From: a virus
IMG/VR virus record: IMGVR_UViG_3300043395_003072
Location: 1-64,000 of that record
Length of the DNA: 64,000 nt
Strand: one strand, 5' to 3'
This document shows, in pieces, positions 10,305 through 51,889 of the stretch. How positions within the stretch are numbered: position 1 is the first letter of the stretch; each line of letters starts with the position of its first letter. The notes under the pieces are model-generated. The model was not told the origin of the DNA. It saw nothing but the letters and a program-made list of their open reading frames with translations, and did no database searches. A program made the translations under genes and the position numbers.

Positions 10305-10378
10305 GCGCTCATAGCTCAGCTGGATAGAGCAACGGCCTTCTAAGCCGTAGGTCATAGGTTCGAATCCTATTGAGCGTA
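10305..10378 (+). tRNA. tRNA-Arg(TCT)
   Basis: Cloverleaf; acggc-CT TCT AA-gccgt; GGTTCGAATCC. Confidence 0.95.
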
Positions 10379-10410
10379 TAAAATACTCTTTGAAAACAAA
10401 GACTTTTTAC

Positions 10411-10485
10411 GCTTCCTTAGCTCAATGGTAGAGCGAGGTGTGTGTTGTAACCCCTGGGTTCTAGGTTCGATTCCTAGAGGAAGCA
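10411..10485 (+). tRNA. aberrant tRNA, Thr(TGT)-like, distorted anticodon arm (possible pseudogene)
   Basis: Perfect acceptor, D and T arms; anticodon arm aggtg-tgtgttgtaa-cccct has a mismatch and a 10-nt loop. Confidence 0.65.
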
Positions 10486-10518
10486 TTAATTTGTATTAAT
10501 CAATGAAAGAATTTTGAA

Positions 10519-10839
10519 ATGATTATCTGTCGTATTACAGAGAATGAATATCTTCAAGTTGTTTATCTTGATGATATGGCTTCAAGAATAGATTCATTAC
10601 AAGTGAGAGTTTCTCTTAAAGAAATCCCATTTATTGAAGATTTTCTTTATAAAGCACTAAAAAGAATTGAAACATCTACTAATACTGTAGATGCTGAAAC
10701 TATAACTGAAGGTGCATATTCTATTTGCCTCTATCCTGCTGTTCATAAAGCAATCATTACCCTTAGAGGAGAAACTATTAAACTTCACTTTGATACTATT
10801 TCAGAACTAAAAAATAAACTAGCTTCCTTAGCTCAATAG
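10519..10839 (+). CDS. hypothetical protein; 3' end overlaps tRNA-Asn
   Basis: ORF track. Confidence 0.55.
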   Translation: MIICRITENEYLQVVYLDDMASRIDSLQVRVSLKEIPFIEDFLYKALKRIETSTNTVDAETITEGAYSICLYPAVHKAIITLRGETIKLHFDTISELKNKLASLAQ

Positions 10840-10895
10840 GTTAGAGCAACTGGCTGTTAACCAGTAGGTTCTAGGTTCAAGTCCTAGAGGAAGCG
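10822..10895 (+). tRNA. tRNA-Asn(GTT)
   Basis: actgg-CT GTT AA-ccagt; cloverleaf. Confidence 0.95.
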
Positions 10896-10898
10896 CTT

Positions 10899-10989
10899 AC
10901 AAACTCTCTACGGTGTTGAAAGAGTCTTAAATCTGTACGATCTGGTGGCATTGCAAGGCTTTTCTTGCAAACAGTCAGATGGAGTTTGT
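10899..10989 (+). ncRNA. candidate structured RNA between tRNAs
   Basis: Closing stem acaaactc/gagtttgt enclosing atctgg/tcagat and ttgcaag/cttgcaa. Confidence 0.4.
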
Positions 10990-10995
10990 TTTTAT

Positions 10996-11079
10996 GCCGC
11001 TGTGGTGGAATAGGTAGTCACAGGGGACTTAAAATCCCCCGCTCTAAAAGGCGTACCGGTTCGAGTCCGGTCAGCGGTA
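10996..11079 (+). tRNA. tRNA-Leu(TAA)
   Basis: gggga-CT TAA AA-tcccc; long variable arm. Confidence 0.95.
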
Positions 11080-11082
11080 TAC

Positions 11083-11155
11083 GGGCGTGTAGCTCAGTGG
11101 TTAGAGCAGCCGGCTCATAACCGGTCGGTCGTGGGTTCAATCCCCTCCGCGCCCA
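11083..11155 (+). tRNA. tRNA with CAT anticodon (Ile2 or elongator Met)
   Basis: gccgg-CT CAT AA-ccggt; paired G1-C72, so not initiator. Confidence 0.9.
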
Positions 11156-11180
11156 CTTATTATAATATAAAGGGTTAAAA

Positions 11181-11504
11181 ATGATTCAATACTTACTTCC
11201 ATGTACGTTACTAGTTATATCTAGTATAATATTTTGGTTTAAAGGTAACGCAAAAGATCTATTCGGTATAGAATGGGGCCCTTTTGAATGGTGGATATAT
11301 ACAAGCCTAGCTACTAACTACATGACACTTATATCATGGTGGAAGTTACTAGAGCTTGGAGATGTATGGAAGGCAGGAGTGATATGGGGAGTAATAAGTC
11401 TTTTTGTAGACCTAACTTTGAATTCCTGGTATTACGGATTCAATTGGAAAGGTCTTGTCGCTATGTGCTTATGCGCATGCGCAGCCATCATAATACATAA
11501 CTAA
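11181..11504 (+). CDS. small 4-TM membrane protein (SMR/DMT-like size)
   Basis: Four hydrophobic segments in 107 aa. Confidence 0.6.
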   Translation: MIQYLLPCTLLVISSIIFWFKGNAKDLFGIEWGPFEWWIYTSLATNYMTLISWWKLLELGDVWKAGVIWGVISLFVDLTLNSWYYGFNWKGLVAMCLCACAAIIIHN

Positions 11505-11530
11505 TAACCTGTAACAACAAAGGAATAACT

Positions 11531-11920
11531 ATGCTTACTAAAGAAGAACAAAATAATTTTGCCTCCTCTGAGGATCCTAAAGATAAAGTGCGAATTGCAA
11601 TCTCAATTGCCTTTTATGTCTCCTCAGTTTCTACTCTCTCTTATGATACTCAAAATCTTGCTTTGCTTGCTGCTCATAGGTGGCAAGTAGCTTATGATTT
11701 TGGTACTATCGAAAGAGTTTATCCTTGGATCTTTGGCTTGCCAAACGATCCTTTCGGAGAGTTTGAAAGACTCTTCGGTATGCAGGGTTGGAATCCTGAT
11801 GATATTATTGTCGACAAGTTTGCAAACGTCATACCCACCAAAGATTATCTCGATGAGCTAATGGCTGGTATTGACGCTTACAAGTTTGATCGTACTGTTA
11901 GTCCTGAGGAAGACTTTTAG
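11531..11920 (+). CDS. hypothetical protein
   Basis: AAGGA RBS. Confidence 0.6.
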   Translation: MLTKEEQNNFASSEDPKDKVRIAISIAFYVSSVSTLSYDTQNLALLAAHRWQVAYDFGTIERVYPWIFGLPNDPFGEFERLFGMQGWNPDDIIVDKFANVIPTKDYLDELMAGIDAYKFDRTVSPEEDF

Positions 11921-12164
11921 TCAACTCTAACCTAACTAGTCTCTCTTCAAGTTCTTTGACGTCTTTTTGAAGTGGCTCAATCACTTCTTCTTCAAGCTCT
12001 TCAATGGACTTAACCTTGTCTTCCTTTAACTCTAAATGCTTTAAAGCTAATTTATAAGCAAAAAAAGATATAAAACAAAGTACTCCAGCCCAAATGTTCT
12101 GCTCTATAATCTTTAAAACGATTATAGTAATATCTATTTCTTTGACATTAGTCTGTTCTGGCAT
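11898..12164 (-). CDS. membrane protein with coiled coil (holin-like candidate)
   Basis: AGGAG RBS on the minus strand; TM helix then heptads. Confidence 0.5.
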   Translation of the reverse strand: MPEQTNVKEIDITIIVLKIIEQNIWAGVLCFISFFAYKLALKHLELKEDKVKSIEELEEEVIEPLQKDVKELEERLVRLELTKSLPQD

Positions 12165-12180
12165 TATAGTTCTCCTATAT

Positions 12181-12261
12181 GGGAAGGATGCTCGATGGTT
12201 GGGCAGCAGGCTGTAAACCTGTGGTCTTTGGACACTGTGGGTTCGACCCCCTCCCTTCCCA
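12181..12261 (+). tRNA. tRNA-Tyr(GTA)
   Basis: gcagg-CT GTA AA-cctgt; long variable arm. Confidence 0.9.
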
Positions 12262-12354
12262 TTTTACTACTAACGTGCGAGTAGTAAAACCTGGCTTATG
12301 AAGCTGGGGCGTTTTTTGGATATCCTCAGTAATTCTGCTGGGGATATCCGTCCT

Positions 12355-12426
12355 GCGAAAGTAACTCAATGGTAGAGTATCTGCCTTCCAAGCAGAATGT
12401 TGCGGGTTCAAATCCCGTCTTTCGCT
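12355..12426 (+). tRNA. tRNA-Gly(TCC)
   Basis: tctgc-CT TCC AA-gcaga. Confidence 0.95.
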
Positions 12427-20358: not shown

Positions 20359-20566
20359 TAGAGAAAATTGCGGATACTTCTACTACTTGGAAGAAGAAGA
20401 CTACAAGAACATAGACTTCTCCAATAAATTCATCAACTGTCCCGAGTGTACTTCCTTAGCAGCTTATGTTCCTGACGATTTTGTTATGGAAACAAGCAAA
20501 GAAGAGTACATTCAAATCTATGCTAAGATTAATAAGGTATTTAAAGAATATGACGACGACAATTAA
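20339..20566 (+). CDS. small Zn-ribbon protein
   Basis: CFDRENCG...CPEC. Confidence 0.6.
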   Translation: MKIFCFDRENCGYFYYLEEEDYKNIDFSNKFINCPECTSLAAYVPDDFVMETSKEEYIQIYAKINKVFKEYDDDN

Positions 20567-22949
20567 TTACTATAGAGATTCGCAAAACAATCTTGCTTCT
20601 TTTGAATTGCAAGATGATGTTTTTCCAGGTTTTACTGATTTGCCTGATGATGCTTCTAGAGCATTACTCCTCTCAGCTTACTCTTCTTCTTTTTCTCAAG
20701 ACCCTATTCTAAGTTATGCTGGTAACAACCTCTTGACTGGTTATCCTTTCCAGGCAGAAAGAAGGACTCTTAATAGTCTTACTCCTCTATTAAGCCTAAC
20801 AGATCAATCTACTGCAATTTACAATAGTACAAGATATACAAGCCCAAGTTACTTTAATAATGTTGATAGCTTCTTACCAAGTATTAGCTTTAACAAGGAT
20901 GTATATAGGCAACTTTATACTGATCACCAAGTAGTAGCCTTTCAAAACACTTATACTACAGAGTTCCTTACTCAAAATGAAACAGTAAGAAGTTATACTC
21001 GTGGATCAATAAACGATCCTCAAGTGTTTTTCGAAAATCCACCTCAGCTTCCATACCTTTACTATTGTAAGAAAAAGCTAGTTGGAACTGTTGATAATCT
21101 ACCTGTCTTTTCAACTTTAGTTCCAGAAGCTTTTGTAACATTTAAAGATAAATGCATTAAGCTAGATGATATTACCTACCACTATGCTCCATTTGTTAAA
21201 AGCTCTTTTCCAGGTACTCATCGCCGGTGCTATGCAATTAAAAGCAACTTGAAATCAACTATAAAGTCTGGTGTTTTTGCTGACATTAGCACTGAAAATG
21301 CAAAGCTAATGGATATTATTGCTAACTCTACAGCTAAGCGTTTTACAGTAATTGAAGTACCAGGATGGTCATCTGCAGCTAAACTAAATGATCCTCTCAA
21401 GATTGTTGAATATACTAAGTCTCAGGTTCAAAAGCGTAAGGCTTGTTTGATTCCTGCGCTCTTCAAAATGCAATTTAGAGATGAAAACTTTCAACTAAAG
21501 GATTGCTATCATTTCTCTCTTGTTTTGAATGTAAAGCTATTCTTCTCAACTATTGCTAGTATTAATTCTTTTTCGAATCTAATAAATTCGTTAGGAGAAG
21601 GCGATGGTTTAAAGTTCTTTAATCCAGAAGCATACAAAGAAGCAATTTACAAAAAGCTTGGAATCTTAAGTTATTATAGCAGTCAGATGGTAGCCTCCTT
21701 GCCAGAAGCACAACTCAATATGCTTCTACACAAGTACACTACTCAAACCAAATCTACGCATCTTAATAGTGCTGATTGCGACGATATATTTTCTATTAAA
21801 CTTAATGTAAATCCAACTATCACTACAAACCTAGATAAAGCTAACGCTAAGTATGAAGAGATTAAGAACAATATCAAAACATACAAAAAGCACTTTCTAG
21901 AAACTTTTAATCAAAAGTCTTCTGCAGTTACCACATATATTGATTACAAAAGACGACTTAAAGAAGTAAAAGATACTTACGAAAATACTACACTTCATAA
22001 TCTTACCACAGTAATTGATAATATCTCCTTCTCTACGAGAGTAGCTCAAGTTGTAAAAGAATTTGAAAACGCTTATGAGGCAGATAAGAAAAGAGCTTTA
22101 TCTGAAAAAGATTATGTAAAAGATGAGTTCTTTAATAATCTTGCAAAAGATGGAATTTATATCGAATCTATCTCTTTTAAAACTAAAAATGGCAACACAA
22201 AGACCCTTACAGCTAACACTTTTGATAAAACCCAAATCTTAGACCACTTACTAAGTAATGATAGATCAAGTCTAATTCAATCTATCTCTAATATTACTTT
22301 GGTAACTACTAAGCCTCAGAAGATTAAGGTAGATAACGACCCAAATATGATTGTTGTAGGCGGTCCTTACCGAGTGTATGCTGAGCCAAATCTCCTGCAA
22401 GTTTCCTTAGCAGAACTTCCTGCTGTTTGGGGTTATAATCCAAACAACACTGATTATATTTACGTTCACCCTCATGCTGCTAGTGTTACAATTAGCTCCA
22501 CAACAGTACTTGATAAAGCTAGAGCATGTTTAGGTGAAGCTGCTCCAATGCTTCACAAAGCTGGTACTACTGGCGATATCAAGATGATGATCTATACTAT
22601 TCTTATCTGGCTTCGCTCAGCGAATAGTGCAGATCCTTGGGGTCGTAATTATGTTCACTTTCCTAAGCTATCTGATGTTGACTTCGAAGGTATTACTATG
22701 GAGAAGTTTAACAAGATTAGGGAAGAGCAAAGTCTTGAGGTTAATGAGGAAGATATTGATTCTTTCCTTTTAACTGATTTAGGAGACCCCGAAGAGGACG
22801 ATGATAGTGAGGAAGATCTCCCCTCTACAGACGACCCTGTAGTTGAAGATCAAACTATTACTATTGAGCAAATCTTTGATACAGCTTCTCCTCCGGCCTA
22901 TGTAAGATGGTCGAATTTAGCAAATCAACCCACAGACCCAACAAGGTAA
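20550..22949 (+). CDS. large coiled-coil protein with C-terminal prokaryotic E2 (UBC-like) domain
   Basis: HPH (22467) ... ACLG (Cys 22527) ... WLRSAN..DPWG; directly upstream of JAB, E1 and Ubl genes; likely ATG 20550. Confidence 0.68.
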   Translation: MTTTINYYRDSQNNLASFELQDDVFPGFTDLPDDASRALLLSAYSSSFSQDPILSYAGNNLLTGYPFQAERRTLNSLTPLLSLTDQSTAIYNSTRYTSPSYFNNVDSFLPSISFNKDVYRQLYTDHQVVAFQNTYTTEFLTQNETVRSYTRGSINDPQVFFENPPQLPYLYYCKKKLVGTVDNLPVFSTLVPEAFVTFKDKCIKLDDITYHYAPFVKSSFPGTHRRCYAIKSNLKSTIKSGVFADISTENAKLMDIIANSTAKRFTVIEVPGWSSAAKLNDPLKIVEYTKSQVQKRKACLIPALFKMQFRDENFQLKDCYHFSLVLNVKLFFSTIASINSFSNLINSLGEGDGLKFFNPEAYKEAIYKKLGILSYYSSQMVASLPEAQLNMLLHKYTTQTKSTHLNSADCDDIFSIKLNVNPTITTNLDKANAKYEEIKNNIKTYKKHFLETFNQKSSAVTTYIDYKRRLKEVKDTYENTTLHNLTTVIDNISFSTRVAQVVKEFENAYEADKKRALSEKDYVKDEFFNNLAKDGIYIESISFKTKNGNTKTLTANTFDKTQILDHLLSNDRSSLIQSISNITLVTTKPQKIKVDNDPNMIVVGGPYRVYAEPNLLQVSLAELPAVWGYNPNNTDYIYVHPHAASVTISSTTVLDKARACLGEAAPMLHKAGTTGDIKMMIYTILIWLRSANSADPWGRNYVHFPKLSDVDFEGITMEKFNKIREEQSLEVNEEDIDSFLLTDLGDPEEDDDSEEDLPSTDDPVVEDQTITIEQIFDTASPPAYVRWSNLANQPTDPTR

Positions 22950-22953
22950 TATC

Positions 22954-23976
22954 ATGAAATCTGTTTCCGACTTTAGAATGTTAAATGCTCCACCAAATAT
23001 CCTTGCAACAAGGAAAACAATTCAAGCGATCAAGCATATTGTTAAGATTGCTCCTGAAGAGGCTCAGTGGTTTCATACAGTCGAGTATGACTCTGAATCA
23101 AACTCTTTGATACTTGGTGAAGAACTATATATCCCTGAACAAGTTTGTTCTGCTGCAGAAGTTGATACTAGCTCTAGTATGATTGTTCGCTTTTACAAAG
23201 AGCTATCAGCTAAATATGATCAAGAGACTACAAATAATATTCTTAAATCTATGACTTGTTGGTGCCATAGTCACCACAATATGGCACCTAATCCAAGTGG
23301 TCAAGATGTAAGGCAGTTCTCTACATTAATCCAGCAATCCATAGATCAAAATCAGTCTTCTTGGCAAATCATGCTAATCTTCAATAAGAAAGATCAGTTT
23401 TATAGCCGAGTTTATGATCCAAATTCTGGCAACGTTTACGAGGGTGTCCCTATTGATGTTGTCGAGGATAGCTTTGATTTTAATTACATTGATGTTGCTG
23501 CTAAAACAAAGTTTAAAACTCCTACACCAGCACCTGCAGCTTTCGCTAATTATAAGTTTGGATCGCCTACACAGGTAAAGAAGATCCCAACAGATAATTA
23601 CAATTCTCAGATTGCTGAAACTATTATGGATCAAATTTTTACTACTAAAGATCTACTTCTAGATAAGTTTAAATTCTCTAAGAAAGAAGCTCAAACTTAC
23701 CTAGCTAATATCCATCAATGTTTAACCGATAAAGAGATTCTTTGGTTTTATAGTGTATTGTCTGGAAAGAAAGATATCATTATTGAATCTTATTCAGATG
23801 AAATTGCTAGTAATAAACTCAAAGAGCTTGAGCTTCCTCTAAATACTTTCTTTATAAACTTATTTACTTCAGGTAAGTTTACTCCAGATCATTGTAAGAA
23901 AGCTTTGAAGGCTATCTTTGAGCTAGATGACTGTCCGACTATTAGTGAATTAATCCAGAAAGTGAAGTTGGCTTAA
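22954..23976 (+). CDS. JAB/MPN+ (JAMM) metallopeptidase, Ubl-processing/deconjugating
   Basis: E(AQWF) ... HSH-x7-S-x2-D (WCHSHHNMAPNPSGQD). Confidence 0.9.
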   Translation: MKSVSDFRMLNAPPNILATRKTIQAIKHIVKIAPEEAQWFHTVEYDSESNSLILGEELYIPEQVCSAAEVDTSSSMIVRFYKELSAKYDQETTNNILKSMTCWCHSHHNMAPNPSGQDVRQFSTLIQQSIDQNQSSWQIMLIFNKKDQFYSRVYDPNSGNVYEGVPIDVVEDSFDFNYIDVAAKTKFKTPTPAPAAFANYKFGSPTQVKKIPTDNYNSQIAETIMDQIFTTKDLLLDKFKFSKKEAQTYLANIHQCLTDKEILWFYSVLSGKKDIIIESYSDEIASNKLKELELPLNTFFINLFTSGKFTPDHCKKALKAIFELDDCPTISELIQKVKLA

Positions 23977-24668
23977 TGCAAGTAAGTTTCCTTAGGCATA
24001 GTGGTTTCTTTGGTCCTGAAGATGTAAATGGTAAAACTCTAAATATTATTGGAGTTGGTGCCACAGGAAGTTGGGTTGGTCTCATCGCTGCTAAGATGGG
24101 CTGGCATAACTTCCGAGTCTGGGACCTTGATATCGTTGAGTCTCATAATCTACCTAATCAAATTTATAGTGCAAAGCACATTGGTATGAAAAAGGTTGAT
24201 GCTTTTGAGCAAGTACTAAAGGAGTTCAATCCTCAAGTACAAGTTCAAAAGTATGATCGTTTTTATACAAACCAAGAAGACATTTCTAAAATGGATTTTG
24301 GTTCTTATATGTTTATTGCAGTAGATAGTCTTTCCGCAAGGAAAGATATCATTGAAGGTGTTAAGAATAATCTCTTCTTAGAGTTAGTTGCTGAGTCCCA
24401 AATGGGTTTTACTCATGCTACTATTAACTACTTTGAGCCTAATGATTACCTTCAGTTAGATACTTACAAGTCTATGCTAAAAGATGATTCTGAAGTAACT
24501 GAATCAGCTTGCAATGAACGTATCATTACTACCTTGACAGCAATGGTTGCTTCTGAGATAGTTCAGACAATCTCTGCTCACGCTTCTAAAAGTCGTAGAA
24601 CCGACGGATATAAGCGCCCACATAAACAAATCTTCTCTCTTAACCCTCTAAAAGTAATTACTTTTTAA
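23976..24668 (+). CDS. ThiF/MoeB/E1-family activating enzyme
   Basis: IIGVGATGS, DLDIVESHNLPNQ, KKVDA, AVDS..AR; candidate catalytic Cys179 (SAC). Confidence 0.93.
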   Translation: MQVSFLRHSGFFGPEDVNGKTLNIIGVGATGSWVGLIAAKMGWHNFRVWDLDIVESHNLPNQIYSAKHIGMKKVDAFEQVLKEFNPQVQVQKYDRFYTNQEDISKMDFGSYMFIAVDSLSARKDIIEGVKNNLFLELVAESQMGFTHATINYFEPNDYLQLDTYKSMLKDDSEVTESACNERIITTLTAMVASEIVQTISAHASKSRRTDGYKRPHKQIFSLNPLKVITF

Positions 24669-24680
24669 TAAGGAATTAAA

Positions 24681-24875
24681 ATGACAACACGTGAACAACT
24701 ACAAGAAATCGTAGATCTTCTAACCCCTGCACTTGACGATGCTGCTAAGTTTGATCGAGGCATGGAAAGCCCAGGTACTCGTGTAAGAGTTGCTGCGTCT
24801 CAAGCTTCTAAGCTACTAAAGGCACTTCGCTCATCAATTCAAGAGACTCGCAAGTCTCGTAAGGATCAAGAATAA
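24681..24875 (+). CDS. histone H1-like Hc1 family small protein
   Basis: DAAKFDRG...GTRVR...K..R matches the Hc1 core pattern. Confidence 0.7.
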   Translation: MTTREQLQEIVDLLTPALDDAAKFDRGMESPGTRVRVAASQASKLLKALRSSIQETRKSRKDQE

Positions 24876-25099
24876 TGGTTACTATTACTCTCGTTGTAAT
24901 TCCTGGCCCCGGTGCTCGCACCGTTCAACTCTCCGATACAGCTACAATTCAAGATCTTGTGGTTCAAGAGAATCTCCACGGTCGCGATATTATTGTAGAT
25001 GGTCAAGGAGTAGCACCTGCTAGCTGGTCTTCAACACCAATTTCTTCTGGTGTTGAGATCTTTGCAACTGGCTCCGTTAAGGGCAACTCTTCTAACTAA
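24875..25099 (+). CDS. ubiquitin-like (beta-grasp) protein, single unit with short C-terminal extension
   Basis: ITLVVIPG..RTV.L...T..DL...IIVDG...EIFATGSVKG|NSSN; ThiS/MoaD/Ub-type pattern. Confidence 0.85.
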   Translation: MVTITLVVIPGPGARTVQLSDTATIQDLVVQENLHGRDIIVDGQGVAPASWSSTPISSGVEIFATGSVKGNSSN

Positions 25100-25173
25100 T
25101 TATCTCTTTATAAGATTTTAAGAAAACAGCCAGATTATTAAGAGATATTAACCTGTTACTTTAATTACCAACT

Positions 25174-25200
25174 AAGGGGCAATAAGCCCCTTTTTCATTT
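25174..25200 (+). terminator. Rho-independent terminator-like hairpin
   Basis: ggggc-aataa-gcccc-tttttcatttt. Confidence 0.6.
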
Positions 25201-25219
25201 CATTATTAAGGATTTTACT

Positions 25220-25894
25220 ATGGCTACCATTACTCTCGTCGTTATCCCTGGTCCTGGCGCTCGCACCGTAACCCTCGCAGCAGGTGCTTCTGTTGCTGAC
25301 CTTGTGTGTCAAGAGAACCTCCATGGTCGTGATATTATTATCAACGGCCAAGGTGTTCCTGCTGCTACTTGGGCTACAGCAACAGTCCCTGAGGCTGCAG
25401 AAGTCTTTGCTACTGGCTCCGTTAAGGGCAACTCTAACTCTATCACGCTTGTTGTTATCCCTGGGCCTGGTGCCCGTAGTGTTGCGCTTCCTGCTGGTGC
25501 AACCGTTGCAGATCTAGTTTGTCAGGAAAACTTGCATGGTCGTGATATTATTATTAATGGCCAGGGCGTAGCGCCTGCGCTTTGGCCAACAACACAGGTG
25601 CCTAGCCAGGCTGAAGTTTTTGCAACCGGATCTGTTAAGGGTAATGCTCATACTGTTACTTTGATTGTGATCCCTGGACCTGGCGCTCGCATCGTACAAG
25701 TAGAGCAAGGAACTACTGTTGCTGATTTTGTTTGCCAAGAAAATCTTCATGGCCGTGATATCATTATTAATGGCATTGGCTTGATTCCAGCAGACTGGGC
25801 TTCTACACCAGTTCCTCCAAACGTCGAGATCTTTGCTACTGGTTCAGTTAAGGGCAATAAGGATTCATCTGTGCCCGCAAATTTTACTATGTAA
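25220..25894 (+). CDS. poly-ubiquitin-like precursor: 3 tandem 71-aa Ubl units + 11-aa tail
   Basis: Three repeats each ending FATGSVKGN; 3x71+11=224 aa; paralogous to 24875..25099. Confidence 0.88.
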   Translation: MATITLVVIPGPGARTVTLAAGASVADLVCQENLHGRDIIINGQGVPAATWATATVPEAAEVFATGSVKGNSNSITLVVIPGPGARSVALPAGATVADLVCQENLHGRDIIINGQGVAPALWPTTQVPSQAEVFATGSVKGNAHTVTLIVIPGPGARIVQVEQGTTVADFVCQENLHGRDIIINGIGLIPADWASTPVPPNVEIFATGSVKGNKDSSVPANFTM

Positions 25895-27109: not shown

Positions 27110-27537
27110 TCATTCAAGTTGTCGGCTTACCTTGCTCCGGAAAGTCTTATTACATAAATAACTTTATAGAAAAATATCCTCAATATAATTTTCTTAAGAA
27201 AGATATTTTAGATTTTTCTGGAACTACGCGAGAAAGAGACTTCTTGTTTGATATCATAGATAATAAAGACAAGAACTTATTTGTCGAGTCGGCTTGCGGT
27301 ATATCACCCCTGAAGAGTACAGTCATATTAGTCAGAGCTTCAAAAGAAGAACACTTGATTAATATGCAAAAAAGGCAAGAAAAGTACTCAAAAAATCTAC
27401 TAGAACAAATAAATAGCCAGATTATTCCTGCTAATTACACAGTTTATAATCAAGAATCTTTTGAAGCTTTAATACTATCTCTAATAGGAGCAAAGCATCA
27501 TGAGAGAGTTGATAATAAGCCAAGAAGAAATCGATGA
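27106..27537 (+). CDS. P-loop kinase-like protein
   Basis: IIQVVGLPCSGKS Walker A at N-terminus; likely TTG 27106. Confidence 0.65.
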   Translation: MIIQVVGLPCSGKSYYINNFIEKYPQYNFLKKDILDFSGTTRERDFLFDIIDNKDKNLFVESACGISPLKSTVILVRASKEEHLINMQKRQEKYSKNLLEQINSQIIPANYTVYNQESFEALILSLIGAKHHERVDNKPRRNR

Positions 27538-28336
27538 GCTATTTAAAGAAAATAAACTCTTAGTTGATATTGAGGCTGCTCAGAATGAATACCTTATTCT
27601 AAAAGCTTCAAGCTCTGCTCTTGTTAAATACAAAAGACCACACTTTACACCATTAAGAGATTTTAAAACTTATCAAGGTATAAAGCCTAAAGATGCACAT
27701 CAGAAATGTTTCTTTGATTCAGTGGCAGATGATCAGATACTAATGACTGTTGTGCTTGGTAAGGCTGGTACTGGTAAAACATTACTGGCTATGGCTTATG
27801 CTGTTGATCAGTATTTCAAATCAAACAAAACAATAGTATTAATAAAGCCTACTATTTTTGTAGGTGGCAAATCTTCAGTTATGGGTCCTGTGCCTGGCGA
27901 TGTTAATGATAAACTCGCAGGTACAATGTCTTCATTTATAGTGCATATGAACGCTTTGCTTGGCCACAAGGCTTCTTTCATACTCGAAGATATGCTTGAT
28001 AAAGGTAATCTTAAGCTCTTACCTATCGAGCAAGCTAGAGGAATGAACTTAGAAAATTGCACTGTAATATTAGACGAAGCTCAAAACTGTGATATTCATG
28101 CTATGAAAACAATTGTTTCTAGAGTCGCCTCAAATAGTAAGCTTATTGTACTTGGAGATCTCTCTCAAATAGATGCTCCATTTAGAAGAACCGACTCTGG
28201 TCTTCATATCTTCATAGAGTCTAAAGCTTTTAAAGACTCTATTGTTACTTCACAAATCACTTTAACTACACAATACAGATCAGCCTTAGCTGATTTATGC
28301 GAAGCTGTATCTGAGGAATACTATAAGGATAAATAA
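27500..28336 (+). CDS. phoH: PhoH-family ATPase
   Basis: GKAGTGKTLLA, PGDVNDK, RG, ILDEAQN, LGDLSQID, RS.LA. Confidence 0.93.
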   Translation: MRELIISQEEIDELFKENKLLVDIEAAQNEYLILKASSSALVKYKRPHFTPLRDFKTYQGIKPKDAHQKCFFDSVADDQILMTVVLGKAGTGKTLLAMAYAVDQYFKSNKTIVLIKPTIFVGGKSSVMGPVPGDVNDKLAGTMSSFIVHMNALLGHKASFILEDMLDKGNLKLLPIEQARGMNLENCTVILDEAQNCDIHAMKTIVSRVASNSKLIVLGDLSQIDAPFRRTDSGLHIFIESKAFKDSIVTSQITLTTQYRSALADLCEAVSEEYYKDK

Positions 28337-28339
28337 TTA

Positions 28340-28774
28340 ATGTACGCTGCTTCATTTAATATCTACAAGAAATCTGCTGCTGCTCAATTCTCACTGCTAC
28401 CTCCTCGTCGTGATGAGAATGGTCGTGTATCTAAGAATGGAGCTATTCTTGTAGAGATGGCACCTAGTATTGGCGAGAAAGCTTATGACTGGAAGGGCAA
28501 GAAGCTTACCTTTGCTTTTGGAATCAATGATCTAGTTCAGTTCTTTGACGATCAAACCAATCCAAAGTGGGGTCAGTTCCTTCATGATAATGAGGGTCAA
28601 ATCAAAAAGCTTTCTATTACTCATGGAGAAGGTAAGTATGAGGGTACTTATATGATGGGTATCTCTTCTGGAGATAACCGAGTATCTGTCTCTCTTTCAG
28701 GAGGCGAGTTCGCTACATTGCATCGCCTATTTACTGCTGCACTCCCTAAGATTCTTGGATGGGACAGTGTCTGA
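28340..28774 (+). CDS. Whirly-like ssDNA-binding protein
   Basis: IYKKSAA, G.ILVEMAP..G...YDW, FLHD, EFATL...LPKILGW follow the plant Whirly consensus in order. Confidence 0.75.
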   Translation: MYAASFNIYKKSAAAQFSLLPPRRDENGRVSKNGAILVEMAPSIGEKAYDWKGKKLTFAFGINDLVQFFDDQTNPKWGQFLHDNEGQIKKLSITHGEGKYEGTYMMGISSGDNRVSVSLSGGEFATLHRLFTAALPKILGWDSV

Positions 28775-29147: not shown

Positions 29148-29615
29148 ATGTTTTCTTATACTGTTAAAATTCGACGTATCAACTCTGCTAGCAGCTTTAA
29201 GGCTATTGCTTCAGTTCTCATTGATAACATGATTGAGATTGATGGCTTTAAAGTAATCAATGGTCGTAATGGATTATTCGTAAGTGTACCTAGCCACAAA
29301 GGCGAAGTAGTCGAAGATGGAGTCAAGGTAGAGAAATACTTTGACGATGTAAAATTCCCTGGAGAAGAAGCACTTGAGTTCTCTAAGGAGCTCAAAGAGG
29401 CTATCTTGTCTGCATACAATAACACTTCCACTAGTACTGGTTCTCCTTCTGAAGTTTTAGCTACAAAGCCTACTCCTAAAAGGCAAGTAGTTGATCAAGA
29501 AGAAACTGCTACTCGTAAATCAGTTGCGGCTACAGCTAAAGCTTCTGCAGCAACTACAGAGTCAGCTAAACCTGCTACAGCAACACGTGAGCGCAAACCT
29601 CTCTGGGGTTATTAA
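29148..29615 (+). CDS. spoVG: SpoVG-family nucleic-acid-binding protein with low-complexity tail
   Basis: KAIASVLID...I.GFKVINGRNGLFVSVPS...D...P...ELKEAILSAY. Confidence 0.85.
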   Translation: MFSYTVKIRRINSASSFKAIASVLIDNMIEIDGFKVINGRNGLFVSVPSHKGEVVEDGVKVEKYFDDVKFPGEEALEFSKELKEAILSAYNNTSTSTGSPSEVLATKPTPKRQVVDQEETATRKSVAATAKASAATTESAKPATATRERKPLWGY

Positions 29616-29617
29616 TA

Positions 29618-30172
29618 ATGACTGACGACTACGAGCCCGTAGAAGTAGTCGGAATTGAAGCTGAAGATCTTGTTGATGAATTAAAGCTAGGTGCAGAAAC
29701 ATATTCACAAATCACAGAAGCTTTTATTAAAGAATTTGTTTTTTATGACAAAACTTTATATCAATGGGCTAACGATTTGATGATAGATGTTCCGTCAGCT
29801 AAAAGTCTCGATATACAAAACTTCAGAGAACTTCTGACTCAACTTGCAACAAATATTCAAATATCATCTAACTATTACTCTCTTGCAGCATCTATGGTTG
29901 ATGCGATTGGTGGAGGTAATAGTATGAAAAAATCTGACCTAGTTAACATTATAGTAGGAAATTATGCTGCTAAAGGAGCTAAAAGACCTGCTGCTTCTGT
30001 CATTGAGCGCATGGCTGACTCTTATCTCTCTAATACTGTCTCTGCTGAGAAAGCTGCAAAGATCGTAAAGAATTTTTGGAAACAAAGATTTGATACTCTT
30101 CTAGAGCTTAGAAAAGTGTTTGAACAAATAGGTCTATCACTCTCTGTAGAGATGAAGTTTACATCGAATTGA
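29618..30172 (+). CDS. helical hypothetical protein
   Basis: ORF track; coiled-coil character. Confidence 0.55.
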   Translation: MTDDYEPVEVVGIEAEDLVDELKLGAETYSQITEAFIKEFVFYDKTLYQWANDLMIDVPSAKSLDIQNFRELLTQLATNIQISSNYYSLAASMVDAIGGGNSMKKSDLVNIIVGNYAAKGAKRPAASVIERMADSYLSNTVSAEKAAKIVKNFWKQRFDTLLELRKVFEQIGLSLSVEMKFTSN

Positions 30173-33491: not shown

Positions 33492-34109
33492 ATGCTAAAA
33501 GATATGGACTTAGCAGACGATTATGAAAAATTACTTAAAGTAGTACTTGATGCTGCACTTGTTGATTTTATTAAACTTCAACACCCTAGAAATAGAACTA
33601 AAAAGTATTTAGAGGAAGCTTTAGATACTTCCGTTGAATTGTTTTTTGACCCTGATTTTCGCTTTGAATATTTTTTCAATCAAGATGATCCTAATGAAAA
33701 ATACTCTTTAAAAGAAGCCTTAATCAGATTATTAAAAACAAGGAATATTTCTATGACTAAAGTAAAAAATCATGTCGTCAATGAGTCTATATCTTATTGG
33801 TGGGAAAAGAATTTCCACGATATAAAAGTACCAACTAAAGTTAATTTAGCTGGTAAGGTTTTTTATATAGTAAATTCAAAACAAGAACGAATAGATTATG
33901 AAAATAATAAACTCTATTTTGCCTGCAAAAAAGAAGCAGCAGATAGAGTTTTTTTTAAACTATGTCTTAAAGTTCTTATAGAAGAATCTAATTTAGATTT
34001 TACAGATGAACAACTAGAGCTTTTTTATAAATACTTTTATCTTTTCTTAAAAATAAATGATGCATTTCCTACATTAAAATTGAAAGATAACCAAAATGAA
34101 TTGGATTGA
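33492..34109 (+). CDS. hypothetical protein
   Basis: AGGA RBS. Confidence 0.6.
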   Translation: MLKDMDLADDYEKLLKVVLDAALVDFIKLQHPRNRTKKYLEEALDTSVELFFDPDFRFEYFFNQDDPNEKYSLKEALIRLLKTRNISMTKVKNHVVNESISYWWEKNFHDIKVPTKVNLAGKVFYIVNSKQERIDYENNKLYFACKKEAADRVFFKLCLKVLIEESNLDFTDEQLELFYKYFYLFLKINDAFPTLKLKDNQNELD

Positions 34110-34794
34110 TATTATAACCGGTATACTGCTTTTAGGTTTAACATATGCTCTTTATAGGTCTACTCAAAAAGTAGAAATACTTAATGAGTGGATTAATATG
34201 GTTGCTTCTCAAAATGAATTTCTAAATAAAAAACATGATCAGCTATCTGAATATTATAGTACTGAAAACCATGCTTTAGAGGCAACAATCAAAGAGCTAA
34301 ACTCTCGTAATGCTCACTTGGTTGATGAATTAAATACATTCTACAAGGACAACTCTTCTTTAAAAGAACAGATTTATCATTTAAAAGATAAGCATCCTGA
34401 AGAACTTAAAAAAGCAAGAGAAGAAGCCTTAACTAAATCAAGATCAGTAATGCGCGGTCAAGCTACAGAGCATCTCGCTCCTTATATTATAAAAGATACA
34501 AATCCTAAAGATTATCGCTTTATGGGTAACCCTGTAGACTATGTAATATTCGAAGGTCTATCTGATGTACTTGACGGTCAAGCTGATACAATCAAATCAA
34601 TTACATTTCTAGATATTAAAACTGGTAAGTCTTCTTTAACTAAATCTCAAAGAAGAATTCGAGATGCAGTAAATTCTAGCTTTGTAACTTTTAAAGTATT
34701 AAATCTAGATGAGCTTGTTGAAAAACAAGCAGAAGGAACTGTTCAAGATGAACATAGCGTTCAAGACGAAAACGGGTCAAATCCGCCAGATTGA
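34096..34794 (+). CDS. TM + coiled coil + Holliday-junction-resolvase-like nuclease
   Basis: SRSVMRGQATEHLAP, RFMGNPVDYVIF, FLDIKTGKS.L...QRRIRDAV. Confidence 0.85.
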   Translation: MNWIDIITGILLLGLTYALYRSTQKVEILNEWINMVASQNEFLNKKHDQLSEYYSTENHALEATIKELNSRNAHLVDELNTFYKDNSSLKEQIYHLKDKHPEELKKAREEALTKSRSVMRGQATEHLAPYIIKDTNPKDYRFMGNPVDYVIFEGLSDVLDGQADTIKSITFLDIKTGKSSLTKSQRRIRDAVNSSFVTFKVLNLDELVEKQAEGTVQDEHSVQDENGSNPPD

Positions 34795-35763: not shown

Positions 35764-36843
35764 ATGGCTATTAAGAAGCTTACTGGTATACCCGAAATAG
35801 ATATGATTGCTTCTTCCCTTGCAAAGAAATTTGGCAAGGAAGATATCATGTCTGTTGGTCCTAAATATGAGAAGGTAAAAACTATCTCTACTGGCTCTAT
35901 TAGTTTAGATGCCGCTCTTGGTGTAGGTGGGCTTCCCAGCGATAGAGTTGTAGAAATCTTCGGCCCACCATCTGCAGGTAAAACTAGCTTATGCTTGCAA
36001 GTAGTAAAGAACTATATCAATGCTCACGGCTACACTAGGATGCCTGTGTATATCGATCTAGAACGTACTACAGGGCTTGATCTTGTTACTAGTATGGGTA
36101 TCGATGCAGGTAAGATGTTATTCTGCTATCCAGATACTGCAGAGGAAGCTTTACAGCTTGCTCAAGATCTAGGCAAGACTGGCAAAGTAGGTATCATTAT
36201 CTTTGACTCTATTGACGCAGCTCAATCAGAGCGAGATACTAAGCGCTTAATGAATGAGATGGGCGTAGGTGATCTTCCAAGATTACTATCAAAAGCTCTC
36301 CGTGCTATCTCTAAGATTAGCGTAGACAGTGATTGTCTTTACTTGTTTATTAACCAAGTACGCATGAATATTGGAGTTATGTATGGAAATCCAGAGACAA
36401 CGAGTGGGGGTAACGCTATTCCATTCTATGCTTCTGTTAGGCTTAGAGTAAGCAGCAAACCTTCTTCTGATACAGAAGGTGCTCTTACTATGAAGGTTAA
36501 AGTAGTAAAGAATAAAGTTGCGCCCGCTCTTAACAAGGAAGCTATCTTTGAATTCATTGCAGGTAAAGGTACTGAGACTTATGCTGACTTAGTATCTTAT
36601 GCAAAGGATATTGGATTGCTTCGTTTTGCTGGCTCTGCAGTTAAATGGTTTAATCCAGATAATGGCGAAGAAGAAACACTATGCTCTGGTGGTAAAGCCG
36701 GCGCTGTAAGTTTCTTCAAGTCTAACAATGACAAGTACTTAGCTTTTAAAGCTTTATGTTTATCTAAAACAACACCAACTGTTACCGAGGCTACTGAAGA
36801 TGACAGCTCAGATAGTGAAGACCTCTCACACGATCAGGTTTAA
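35764..36843 (+). CDS. recA: recombinase A
   Basis: STGSISLDAALGVGGLP, GPPSAGKT, FINQVR, GNPETTSGGNA..FYASVRL, VVKNKVAP. Confidence 0.96.
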   Translation: MAIKKLTGIPEIDMIASSLAKKFGKEDIMSVGPKYEKVKTISTGSISLDAALGVGGLPSDRVVEIFGPPSAGKTSLCLQVVKNYINAHGYTRMPVYIDLERTTGLDLVTSMGIDAGKMLFCYPDTAEEALQLAQDLGKTGKVGIIIFDSIDAAQSERDTKRLMNEMGVGDLPRLLSKALRAISKISVDSDCLYLFINQVRMNIGVMYGNPETTSGGNAIPFYASVRLRVSSKPSSDTEGALTMKVKVVKNKVAPALNKEAIFEFIAGKGTETYADLVSYAKDIGLLRFAGSAVKWFNPDNGEEETLCSGGKAGAVSFFKSNNDKYLAFKALCLSKTTPTVTEATEDDSSDSEDLSHDQV

Positions 36844-37108
36844 AGAATCGTGGGATGAGGTATCTAATAAAGTCTATGATATCTTACATCTACTTCCATG
36901 GAATAAGGATCATGTAGACTTCTTAACTTATATTACTAAAGAATATTCTAAAGGTCTTGATGACTTTTATAAAGAGAATATCTTTATCTGTCCCCGCTGT
37001 GAAGAAAAATCTATTTTAGGAAGAATGTGTCCTGCTCATAAGCATGCAGTGTGCATTGCTCCTAAAGTAGAACTAGACTATTGTGATGACGAAGAAGATG
37101 AGTTGTGA
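36800..37108 (+). CDS. hypothetical Cys-containing protein
   Basis: CPRC...CPAH. Confidence 0.5.
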   Translation: MTAQIVKTSHTIRFKESWDEVSNKVYDILHLLPWNKDHVDFLTYITKEYSKGLDDFYKENIFICPRCEEKSILGRMCPAHKHAVCIAPKVELDYCDDEEDEL

Positions 37109-38405
37109 ACATAATCATGAAGTGGCTTGTAATCATTGCGAGAAGCAATTTGTACACTTGCATGTGCATACAGAATACTCGCTTCTTGATGGAATTAATA
37201 AGGTAGATAGGCTCCCTAAGCATGTAAAAGCTATGAATCAACCTGCTGTTAGTCAAACAGATCATGGTACGATTTCTGGTTGTTACAAGTTTTACAAGGA
37301 GGCTAAAAAAGCTGGCGTTAAACCAATCATAGGCATGGAAGCTTATTATACGGTTGGTGATAGAGCTGCAAGAGAGCCAGATGAAATGGGTAAGAACTAT
37401 TATCATCTTATTCTCTTAGCTCAAAATAACGTCGGGCTACATAACCTTATTAAGCTATCATCTTACTCCTATACAGAAGGTATGTATCATAAACCTCGCA
37501 TTGATGATGAGTTGATTGCTCAATACTCAGAAGGCTTAATTGCTACTACTACTTGTCTTGGCAGTAGAGCTTCTCAGTTGATTCTAAACGGAGAAGTTAA
37601 AGCCGCAGAGAAATTGATACATCATCACAAGGCTATGTTCAAAGACAGGTTCCTTGTCGAGCTACAACCTCATGTAGATCCTGAACAGATGCTAGTAAAC
37701 AAGACCCTGCTTCAGATCGCTACTTCTAATGATCTTCCTATGGTTATTACTGGTGACTGCCATTACCAGCATGACCACGATAAGATGCACCATGAAGCTG
37801 CGCTTTGTATGCAAACTAAAACTAAACTATCCGATGAGAAGAGATTCTCTTTTGGAGAGCTAGAAGTACATGTATCTGATCATGATTGGATGTGGGCTAA
37901 AGCAGAAGCTCAAGGACTTCCTTATGATGTAATATCTAATACTGTATCTGTTGCTAATATGATAGATAGTGATTCTTACTTCATGGATCGAATGAATCGC
38001 TATCCTAAATATCAAGAGATTCCAGATAACCTTAGATCATTTGAGCTATTAGAAATAGAAGCTCAACATGGTTTATGGGCTAGGTTTAATAGTATGCCGC
38101 CTCAAGAATACAGAGACAGGCTTGCTCATGAACTCAAAGCTATTAAGAAGATGGGCTTTTCAGATTACATGCTAATCGTTGCTCAATTTATGAATGGCGC
38201 AAGAGATTATGGAGTGATGCATGGCCCTGGTCGAGGTTCCGCAGCTGGCAGTCTAGTTGCCTATGCTCTAAGAATTACAGAAGTCGATCCTATTAAATAC
38301 AACTTGGTGTTCTCTCGCTTTCTAAATGAAGGTCGCGGAGCTACACCCTTAATCTTTAACCATGAGATGGCTGCTATTGCAGACAGCCACCGACTACCTT
38401 TTTAA
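37083..38405 (+). CDS. dnaE: DNA polymerase III alpha, fragment 1 (PHP domain to GRGS/FLN motif)
   Basis: HLHVHTEYSLLDG, TDHG, KPRID, DCHY, GPGRGSAAGSLVAY, FSRFLN; ends before the catalytic DID. Confidence 0.93.
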   Translation: MMTKKMSCEHNHEVACNHCEKQFVHLHVHTEYSLLDGINKVDRLPKHVKAMNQPAVSQTDHGTISGCYKFYKEAKKAGVKPIIGMEAYYTVGDRAAREPDEMGKNYYHLILLAQNNVGLHNLIKLSSYSYTEGMYHKPRIDDELIAQYSEGLIATTTCLGSRASQLILNGEVKAAEKLIHHHKAMFKDRFLVELQPHVDPEQMLVNKTLLQIATSNDLPMVITGDCHYQHDHDKMHHEAALCMQTKTKLSDEKRFSFGELEVHVSDHDWMWAKAEAQGLPYDVISNTVSVANMIDSDSYFMDRMNRYPKYQEIPDNLRSFELLEIEAQHGLWARFNSMPPQEYRDRLAHELKAIKKMGFSDYMLIVAQFMNGARDYGVMHGPGRGSAAGSLVAYALRITEVDPIKYNLVFSRFLNEGRGATPLIFNHEMAAIADSHRLPF

Positions 38406-38416
38406 GGATAATTACA

Positions 38417-38587
38417 ATGACTACTATTTATGCGATTCAGAATAAAACAAACAATAACTTTGTTCCTGTAAACGGCACTATGTTTTTCTCAAAGCGTAGT
38501 GATGCTCGTGCAGCTCGTGCAAACCTTCAGGGAAATGATTATCGAATTGTTACTACTACTGTTACCGATTGGAAGACAGCTAAGTAA
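38417..38587 (+). CDS. 56-aa basic protein between dnaE fragments
   Basis: AAGGA RBS; MTTIYAIQNK...KRSDARAARA. Confidence 0.6.
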   Translation: MTTIYAIQNKTNNNFVPVNGTMFFSKRSDARAARANLQGNDYRIVTTTVTDWKTAK

Positions 38588-38656
38588 CTAACACCCACCT
38601 TTACAGTGGGCGCATCTCTTTAACATCCATCTCTTATAGGTTATGATGCTTCTCAT

Positions 38657-40252
38657 ATGCTCTCCAAAGATATATGTTTAAAATATATAGATACTAAAGT
38701 TATTGAAGAAAGATTAGATCAAATAGATCCTGACTTTCTAGAATATGAAGTAAAGATGATATCTCGAGAAGATATTAATCGAATACATAATGTACTAGTA
38801 GTTCAAGATTTTAAATTTGAAGAAAATCCTCATAACAGTATCTTGCTTTATATTACTGGGTTAACCGATCAATTTGATTTTGAAGCTATGAGATCGAATA
38901 TGATTGGTGGTGCACCCCCGGATATCGATATAGATCACGATGCGCTAGAGCGTGAGAAAGCTATTCAATGGTGTATTGATTATTGGGGGCGAGAAAAAGT
39001 CGCCAATATTATTACTCATGGAACTTTTAAACCTAAAAGTCTAGCTAGATCTTATTATCGTATTACTGAGAAGGATCAAGAAGATTTAACAGAACTTCTT
39101 AAAATGATTCCGCCTCCTAAGTATGGCAAGGAAGCCTCTCTCTCAGAAATACTAGAACAAAACCCAAATCTATCCGAAGAAGAGAAGTATAAAACCTTTC
39201 TTGAATTTGCAGATAGAATAGAAGACATGGTTGCAAACTTTGGTATTCATGCGGCTGGCGTAATTATTTCTGACAAAGAAATCTCAGATACTATTCCTAT
39301 CTGGAAGAATTCTAAAGCAGATAGAATTACTCAGTTTGATAAAGACGAATGCGAAGAGCTTGGGTTGCTCAAGTTCGACTTCCTCGGTATCGATACTATC
39401 TCTATTATCAAAGAGTGCGTTTCGCTTATCAAGAGAGACAAGGGTGTAGAAATACAGCCTTACTCTATCCCAGATGGCGATACTCTAGCTTATGAGAAAC
39501 TAAACGAAGGGCATCTTGTTGGTGTGTTTCAAATGGAGACCTCTGGTACTGCCAAGAGGTTAATCATGGATATTCAACCAACTAGCATTGAGGACCTTAG
39601 TGCTATTAGTGCCATTAATCGCCCTGGACCGTTACAAGCTAATCTTGATAAAACCTATATAGCTAACAAACTAAACAAAGCTCCACCAGATACGCTTCCT
39701 GCTCAAGTAGCTGAGATACTCAAAGCTTCATACTGGACCTTGATATATCAGGAGCAGATTATGTCTTTGTTTACTGAGCTTGCAGGGTTTACACCTCAAG
39801 AGGCAGATGAAGTACGTCGAGCTATGGGTAAGAAAAAGCTAGAAGTATTAGAGCCTTACAAAGATAAGTTTATTATAAAGTCCCAAGAAATTGGAGGCTT
39901 GCTCGCTGAATATGCTCAATCTTTATGGTCTGATATATTAGGTTTTGCAGATTACTGTTTAGCTGGAAATACTCAAGTTAAGATTAAACAAACTCCTTAT
40001 GTAAAAACTATTGCAGATATAGTAGATGACCAAATATCACCTACTGTTTTCTCTTATAATGGCTCTGAATTTATAAGACAGAGGGTTGAACAATGGCATT
40101 ATAAGGGAGTAAAACAAACTTACACTTATCTTTGCGAAAACGGAGCGTCAGTTACTTGCACTCCAGATCATAAATTCCTTACAATAGATAATAAATTTAA
40201 ATCTATTGATGAAATTTATACTAATAACTTAGAGATATACACCATAGAATAA
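38657..40252 (+). CDS. dnaE: DNA polymerase III alpha, fragment 2 (catalytic core) fused to split intein N-half
   Basis: PDIDID, GIHAAGVII, GLLKFDFLG, GVFQME, RPGP, YQEQIM, RRAMGKK, FADY|CL. Confidence 0.95.
   Translation: MLSKDICLKYIDTKVIEERLDQIDPDFLEYEVKMISREDINRIHNVLVVQDFKFEENPHNSILLYITGLTDQFDFEAMRSNMIGGAPPDIDIDHDALEREKAIQWCIDYWGREKVANIITHGTFKPKSLARSYYRITEKDQEDLTELLKMIPPPKYGKEASLSEILEQNPNLSEEEKYKTFLEFADRIEDMVANFGIHAAGVIISDKEISDTIPIWKNSKADRITQFDKDECEELGLLKFDFLGIDTISIIKECVSLIKRDKGVEIQPYSIPDGDTLAYEKLNEGHLVGVFQMETSGTAKRLIMDIQPTSIEDLSAISAINRPGPLQANLDKTYIANKLNKAPPDTLPAQVAEILKASYWTLIYQEQIMSLFTELAGFTPQEADEVRRAMGKKKLEVLEPYKDKFIIKSQEIGGLLAEYAQSLWSDILGFADYCLAGNTQVKIKQTPYVKTIADIVDDQISPTVFSYNGSEFIRQRVEQWHYKGVKQTYTYLCENGASVTCTPDHKFLTIDNKFKSIDEIYTNNLEIYTIE
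39956..40249 (+). mobile_element. split intein N-half (98 aa)
   Basis: Block A CLAGNTQV; block B CTPDHKFLT; ends at stop with no C-terminal Asn. Confidence 0.93.
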
Positions 40253-51775: not shown

Positions 51776-51889
51776 ATGAAAATTGTCTCCAAGCAAGATG
51801 CTGGAGAGCAAGTAGTTTACGATATTGGAGTGGCTAGCTTAGAAGGTCATAACAATTTCTTACTAAACAATGGGCTCGTAGCATCTAAC
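51776..51889 (+). mobile_element. split intein C-half (38 aa)
   Basis: MKIV...VYDIGV...HNNFLLNNGLVASN then Cys+1. Confidence 0.93.

Follow-up and report, generated by a model that had tools for sequence, protein, structure and literature searches.

Whirly proteins have been called plant-specific or plant-unique, both in a 2022 review (PMC9070903) and in a 2026 preprint (bioRxiv 10.64898/2026.10.24.761589), and elsewhere a 'eukaryotic' component that arose in the green-plant ancestor, with no donor named (PMC11135702, PMC4758235). The literature describes the family as absent from Synechococcus elongatus and Cyanidioschyzon. The described proteins closest to the phage gene reported here are the plant and algal Whirlies (StWhy2, 3N1H/3R9Z; PBF-2 p24, 1L3A; AtWHY1-3, 4KOO/4KOP/4KOQ), which belong to the same Pfam family, PF08536, and have the same full-length fold. 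The K67A mutant of StWhy2 retains tetramers and short-ssDNA binding and loses 24-mers and cooperativity (PMC3245945), and a recent preprint reports that Arabidopsis Whirlies boost in vitro strand exchange by RecA (bioRxiv 10.64898/2026.10.24.761589).

Already known from phages are automatic database labels and Whirly-fold proteins such as ChmC. The name 'Whirly transcription factor' of UniProt A0A6J5NR37 (uncultured Caudovirales phage, BFVD) is such a label, for which we found no discussing paper; the protein is of the same phage subfamily as ours (E 1e-17, TM 0.93, 48% identity). Our literature search, with most subscription journals outside its reach, turned up no publication about PF08536 proteins of phages. 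Encoded by phages of the Chimalliviridae, ChmC forms a homotetramer with the Whirly fold and binds single-stranded nucleic acids, with a preference for RNA (58 nM vs 184 nM; PMC11077065). Its sequence resembles no known protein, and it has a disordered tail and a role connected with the phage nucleus, whereas the phage Whirly is a sequence-level member of PF08536. By its description ChmC is also set apart through a disordered N/G-rich and acidic tail, a feature lacking in the phage Whirly, which is ordered over its 144 residues to the C-terminus. Trypanosome MRP1/MRP2, Pur-alpha and the PC4 homologue of phage T5 belong to the PC4-like superfamily with the same beta-beta-beta-beta-alpha repeat fold (PMC7549692); here the likeness is of fold only (6-12% identity), with other oligomers and ligands.

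The window, the whole 64,000-nucleotide stretch of DNA that was analyzed, is the beginning of a virus record of 158,462 bp that CheckV rates as 100% complete. Genes of that record for a terminase large subunit, portal, major capsid, tail sheath and baseplate wedge show it to be a contractile-tailed phage. An earlier note, made from the letters alone, had proposed that one open reading frame in the window encodes a phage homologue of plant Whirly; this is now supported by its sequence and fold, by a predicted tetramer and by the genome around it. The reading frame was delimited exactly (Table 1), and every motif quoted from it is present in order. PF08536 was the sole Pfam family matched (44.9 bits, E 1.4e-11; gathering cut-off 23 bits), in an alignment from residue 8 to 129 that spans model positions 1-135 of 136, so that the Pfam check suggested with the proposal came out positive over nearly the full model. 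The only significant matches in a PDB sequence search were six plant Whirly sequences (best StWhy2, E 2e-11, residues 4-142), and an HMM built from eukaryotic Whirlies alone scored the reading frame at 101.9 bits, with 1000 shuffles reaching at most 8.6.

The gene is single-copy within the phage genome, and its ATG lies 3 nt downstream of the PhoH stop; a promoter scan gave nothing above chance. The Whirly domain begins at residue 4, and an in-frame stop upstream at 28334-28336 leaves no room for a transit peptide. Codon-position differences from related phages (a comparison set up for five, with L011 left out) fall mostly at third positions, at 44/28/97 for L013 and alike for L008 and L026; the gene is under purifying selection. 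The shuffle control, the codon-position pattern and synteny reject a chance or artefactual reading frame, and plant or algal contamination is rejected too, since a complete phage genome and 19 IMG/VR loci carry the gene.

Table 1. Features of the Whirly locus in the 64,000-nucleotide window.
Feature	Position	Strand	Evidence and remarks
Separate OB-fold SSB, 123 aa	17251..17622	+	Pfam SSB E 8.7e-17; lacks the usual long acidic tail
PhoH-like ATPase	27500..28336	+	Pfam PhoH E 1.5e-38; directly upstream in 19/19 IMG/VR loci
Probable ribosome-binding site AAGGA	28325..28329	+	Within the PhoH gene, near its end; 10 nt upstream of the ATG; read from sequence, presumed function
Whirly-family gene	28340..28774	+	144 aa; bare domain without transit peptide or acidic tail; predicted homotetramer
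YKKSAAA, counterpart of plant FKGKAAL	28364..28384	+	Alignment to 3n1h; Ser12 at StWhy2 Lys67, the 24-mer lysine
Stretch with Trp51, Lys55, His82, Lys89 (StWhy2 W110, R113, H139, K153)	28490..28606	+	Nearly invariant across the family; 6-residue His-to-Lys loop
SpoVG-like nucleic-acid-binding protein	29148..29615	+	Pfam SpoVG E 2.4e-15; downstream in 18/19 loci
All-helical 184-aa protein	29618..30172	+	Kept in 19/19 IMG/VR loci
Holliday-junction-resolvase-like endonuclease	34096..34794	+	Pfam Endonuc_Holl E 3.9e-31; same co-oriented block
Phage RecA, proposed functional partner	35764..36843	+	Pfam RecA E 2.4e-65

At about 26-29% identity, phage and plant Whirlies have in common a helical-core tetramer (predicted for the phage protein), the conserved Trp, His, Lys and Glu, and a terminal P..LGW. 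Unlike its plant counterparts, the phage protein lacks a transit peptide and a C-terminal tail, has KKSAAA for KGKAAL and Ala for W100, carries a shorter His-to-Lys loop, is phage-encoded and lies outside the lineage closest to eukaryotes. The AlphaFold2 model (pLDDT 94, pTM 0.87) has the Whirly fold of two four-stranded sheets and two helices, beta-beta-beta-beta-alpha twice, with order maintained to the C-terminus. Plant Whirlies rank first in Foldseek (TM 0.79-0.86), and in a full structural scan StWhy2 (3n1h) gave Z 19.3 with an rmsd of 1.9 Å over 140 aligned residues, alongside p24 at Z 18.9, MRP1/2 at 13.5 and Pur-alpha at 6.7.

Four copies are predicted to form a cyclic whirligig homotetramer through their helices, as in the plant structures with which a comparison had been proposed, at a score of 0.93 against 0.00 for the best of three controls, on a scale whose mark was passed by 20 of 30 solved pairs and 1 of 23 single chains and for which four copies lie outside the calibration. 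Prediction runs agreed in at least 96% of contacts, with pLDDT of at least 90. Since plant tetramers have already been solved, the prediction may reflect memory of them, and it speaks for likeness, not for binding.

Residues F64, W110, H139 and K153 of StWhy2, which we take to be its DNA contacts, map to Y9, W51, H82 and K89 of the phage protein. Among 254 distant rows, conservation is 85% at Y9, 100% at W51, 98% at K55, 99% at H82 and 93% at K89. The StWhy2 numbering was anchored on K67 and F138 (PMC3245945). The change from KGKAA to KKSAA that the earlier note had pointed out is real: the land-plant KGKAAL motif, with its second lysine, is absent, and serine stands at this position in 82% of 79 close relatives. 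Algal and Marchantia Whirlies likewise lack the motif (PMC9070903), and the alanine at the W100 position recurs in 78% of eukaryotic rows (most non-land-plant ones). The match had also been called colinear over the full length, which is correct for the order of the motifs but not for their spacing, as the loop between His82 and Lys89 has 6 residues, compared with 13 in 25 of 27 eukaryotic rows and in 141 non-eukaryotic ones.

The gene belongs to a co-oriented block in the order JAB, ThiF, PhoH, Whirly, a 103-aa ORF, SpoVG, the 184-aa helical protein, NrdAB, the resolvase-like nuclease, RecA and DnaE. Around Whirly, gene order is kept down to 29% identity among the 19 IMG/VR loci, two pairs of which are near-duplicates. 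RecA lies within 8 kb downstream of Whirly in 11 of these loci. The DnaE gene appears split (37083-40252 and 51776-53038), with tail-fibre-like genes between the parts. A UvsY-like mediator role had been considered for the 184-aa protein; fold searches returned a weak match (E 0.2) to a Campylobacter phage 'repair and recombination protein' and generic helical bundles. Its best BFVD match, A0A172Q062 (E 2e-4), comes from the cultured Acinetobacter phage vB_AbaM_ME3, as does the second-best BFVD match of Whirly itself, A0A172Q074 (E 6e-4), a homologue by fold only.

Further upstream, a ubiquitin-like block (20466-25894) comprises an 827-aa protein, JAB, ThiF, and single and triple small repeats ending in VKGN. 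This JAB/E1 block precedes Whirly in 18 of the 19 loci (ThiF also in 18), and ThiF occurs within 10 kb of Whirly in the distant lineages L028, L030, L033 and L034 too. A tRNA cluster at 10305-12426 has seven calls, six of them assigned; the remaining one, at 10411-10485, has an unassigned four-base anticodon.

Taken as a whole, the evidence leads us to favor, with appreciable reservation, a tetrameric, sequence-nonspecific ssDNA binder that aids phage recombination beside the OB-fold SSB. We infer ssDNA binding from family membership and the conserved candidate contact residues, and a role with RecA from replication and recombination neighbors in several lineages combined with the RecA stimulation by plant Whirlies. 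The minimal Whirly domain would assemble into a four-fold 'whirligig' homotetramer and bind ssDNA of any sequence between the sheets of adjacent subunits. During infection it would coat ssDNA arising from recombination-dependent replication and repair, melt secondary structure, prevent annealing at microhomologies and assist the phage RecA in finishing strand exchange. Because the position of StWhy2 K67 is occupied by serine, the protein would probably act as a tetramer, with no cooperative 24-mer shell like that of plant WHY2. It would also work beside the phage OB-fold SSB and not in its place: an OB-fold SSB is found in four of five related phage records as well, which led us to reject the idea that Whirly replaces SSB, and since the phage has its own, Whirly would be an additional ssDNA binder. 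With it, uncultured phages of this group (150-200 kb) could have two ssDNA-binding systems, one of them not of the OB type.

The gene context in the window (RNR, resolvase, RecA, DnaE) fits this recombination role, and distant family members adjoin DNA ligase, UDG-PolA and primase genes, with RecA within 10 kb in five of eight long distant contexts. Linkage to replication genes nevertheless carries little weight, because these phages have most of them gathered in a single co-oriented block, and it counts against a RecA role that the immediate neighbors are PhoH and SpoVG; the alanine in place of W100 is a further point against the overall reading. The adjacency to SpoVG, which extends to the distant Whirly of L033, is one of the grounds on which the protein might instead be mainly an RNA binder, serving as a chaperone of mRNA or a regulator of translation in the manner of ChmC or MRP1/2, perhaps working with SpoVG; the Whirly-fold proteins ChmC and MRP bind RNA, as do maize and barley WHY1. 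We consider this reading unlikely, given that the phage protein is much closer to the ssDNA-binding WHY2 than to MRP (Z 19.3 vs 13.5; 29% vs 11% identity), lacks the ChmC type of tail, and has distant relatives beside ligase, PolA and primase genes.

A nucleoid-type or protective protein, which would pack phage DNA or shield ssDNA from host nucleases or sensors with no specific link to RecA, is a poorer candidate still. Plant WHY1 compacts nucleoids (PMC9070903), the phage already owns an SSB, the protein is predicted to be basic (pI 8.8) and its gene follows the ubiquitin-like block, all of which would suit such a function, but cooperative coating by WHY2 requires the K67 that is missing here, and we found nothing to tie the gene to a defence system. 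Small natural variants such as this one, without K67 and without the 13-residue loop, could help to separate the tetramer, 24-mer and RecA-stimulating functions of Whirly.

The Whirly family is large and diverse in phages, with by far its greatest diversity on phage-like contigs. We found 86 close homologues, nearly all metagenomic, and at least 256 related clusters (50% identity, E up to 0.001), mostly of short phage-like proteins; a broader profile gave 137 matches, and ESM Atlas clusters are mostly viral where the taxon is known. Among GTDB genomes the subfamily was matched once, on a 111,807-bp contig (PBLS01000003.1) in the Magnetovibrio sp. SP232 MAG. This contig equals an IMG/VR virus in length and gene order, so a cellular bacterial origin of the subfamily is rejected; its presence in the MAG may point to a host or result from mis-binning. 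A search of 400 other sampled Alphaproteobacteria and of 14 control genomes, Synechococcus elongatus among them, returned no PF08536 protein. Three tblastn queries had no match among 50,697 cultured phage records, and PHROGs held no matching family.

The phylogeny that the earlier note had called for places the eukaryotic Whirlies beside a phage-like lineage and the window protein in another clade. A tree of 47 rows (LG+C20+F+G4) unites the eukaryotic Whirlies in a single clade (100/99), puts five phage-like proteins next to them as sister group (83/87) and assigns the window protein to a separate phage clade (98/98); quick trees of 150 and 89 rows agree. These trees rest on about 155 columns, with rows biased towards query similarity and with fragments and DPANN sequences left out, and four eukaryotic rows carry organism names, the rest being labelled from sequence and placement. 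AU tests rejected the pairing of eukaryotes with the window pair (p 0.004) and with the window protein's 11-row clade (p 0.013, the clade being defined from the tree itself), and on these values we rejected the window protein as the eukaryotes' sister. Together with the 6-residue loop, set against the 13-residue HDP loop, the AU rejection also places it outside the eukaryotic clade.

The sister lineage shares the eukaryotes' 13-residue His-to-Lys loop, and its proteins rank highest with the eukaryotic HMM, in which the window protein is 34th of 339. Where contigs are long, its members (L030, L034, L040, L041) encode RecA, RlaP, ligase, Whirly, UDG-fused PolA, DnaG primase and ThiF. One of its proteins, P0381, carries the NCBI label 'Thorarchaeota' and probably stems from a mis-binned viral contig. 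A comparison of the PolA of these phages with organellar polymerases gave no support for a link.

When the tree was rooted with seven plasmid proteins, the root came to lie among phage-like rows. Monophyly of the eukaryotes was not rejected (p 0.43) and neither was that of the phages (p-AU 0.33), that is, a placement of eukaryotes outside all phage sequences, and the direction of transfer is therefore not settled. The phage or bacterial origin of Whirly that the earlier note had raised thus gains from the diversity of the family in phages, from its absence in the sampled Alphaproteobacteria (one viral contig in a MAG apart) and control genomes, and from the position of eukaryotes beside a phage-like lineage, but not through the window protein's own clade, which is rejected as sister, nor from the rooting. 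Because the phage family is large and diverse, a phage origin of plant Whirly is plausible and testable: the family carries the plant sequence signature, and a candidate donor lineage can be named. The window protein is a real, unstudied variant of a known family, which opens the question of Whirly origin and does not settle it.

We tentatively suggest, giving it slightly less than even credence, that Whirly was originally a recombination accessory of large tailed phages, and that it passed to the green-plant ancestor from phages whose Whirly has the 13-residue HDP loop and which encode UDG-fused PolA, RecA and primase, a transit peptide being added later. If so, organelle DNA metabolism would owe Whirly, like Twinkle and the T7-type RNA polymerase, to phages, and the recently described stimulation of RecA would be an ancestral phage function. 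That the gene was instead picked up recently from an alga or plant, and so says nothing about Whirly origin, is very improbable: the root of the Whirly tree is not fixed and one of four trees puts the phage-like P0208, with a long branch, among the eukaryotes, but the window protein is placed well within a phage clade, its union with eukaryotes is rejected, synteny persists despite great divergence, and there are hundreds of non-eukaryotic clusters.

Outside green plants, a Whirly was found in the chrysophyte Mallomonas annulata (P0182, EukProt), and three proteins, P0168, P0209 and P0235, group with it inside the eukaryotic clade; contamination is possible for these proteins. Weaker and longer Whirly-like proteins (160-400 aa, unannotated; Pfam at most 23.4 bits) occur on 81 large proteobacterial plasmids, with loci (L044:1144-1968, L051-L056) in Hydrogenophaga, Stutzerimonas, Methylibium, Klebsiella, Shewanella, Pseudomonas and Acidithiobacillus. 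About half of these plasmids are predicted to be conjugative, and the protein is possibly an ssDNA binder for transferred DNA.
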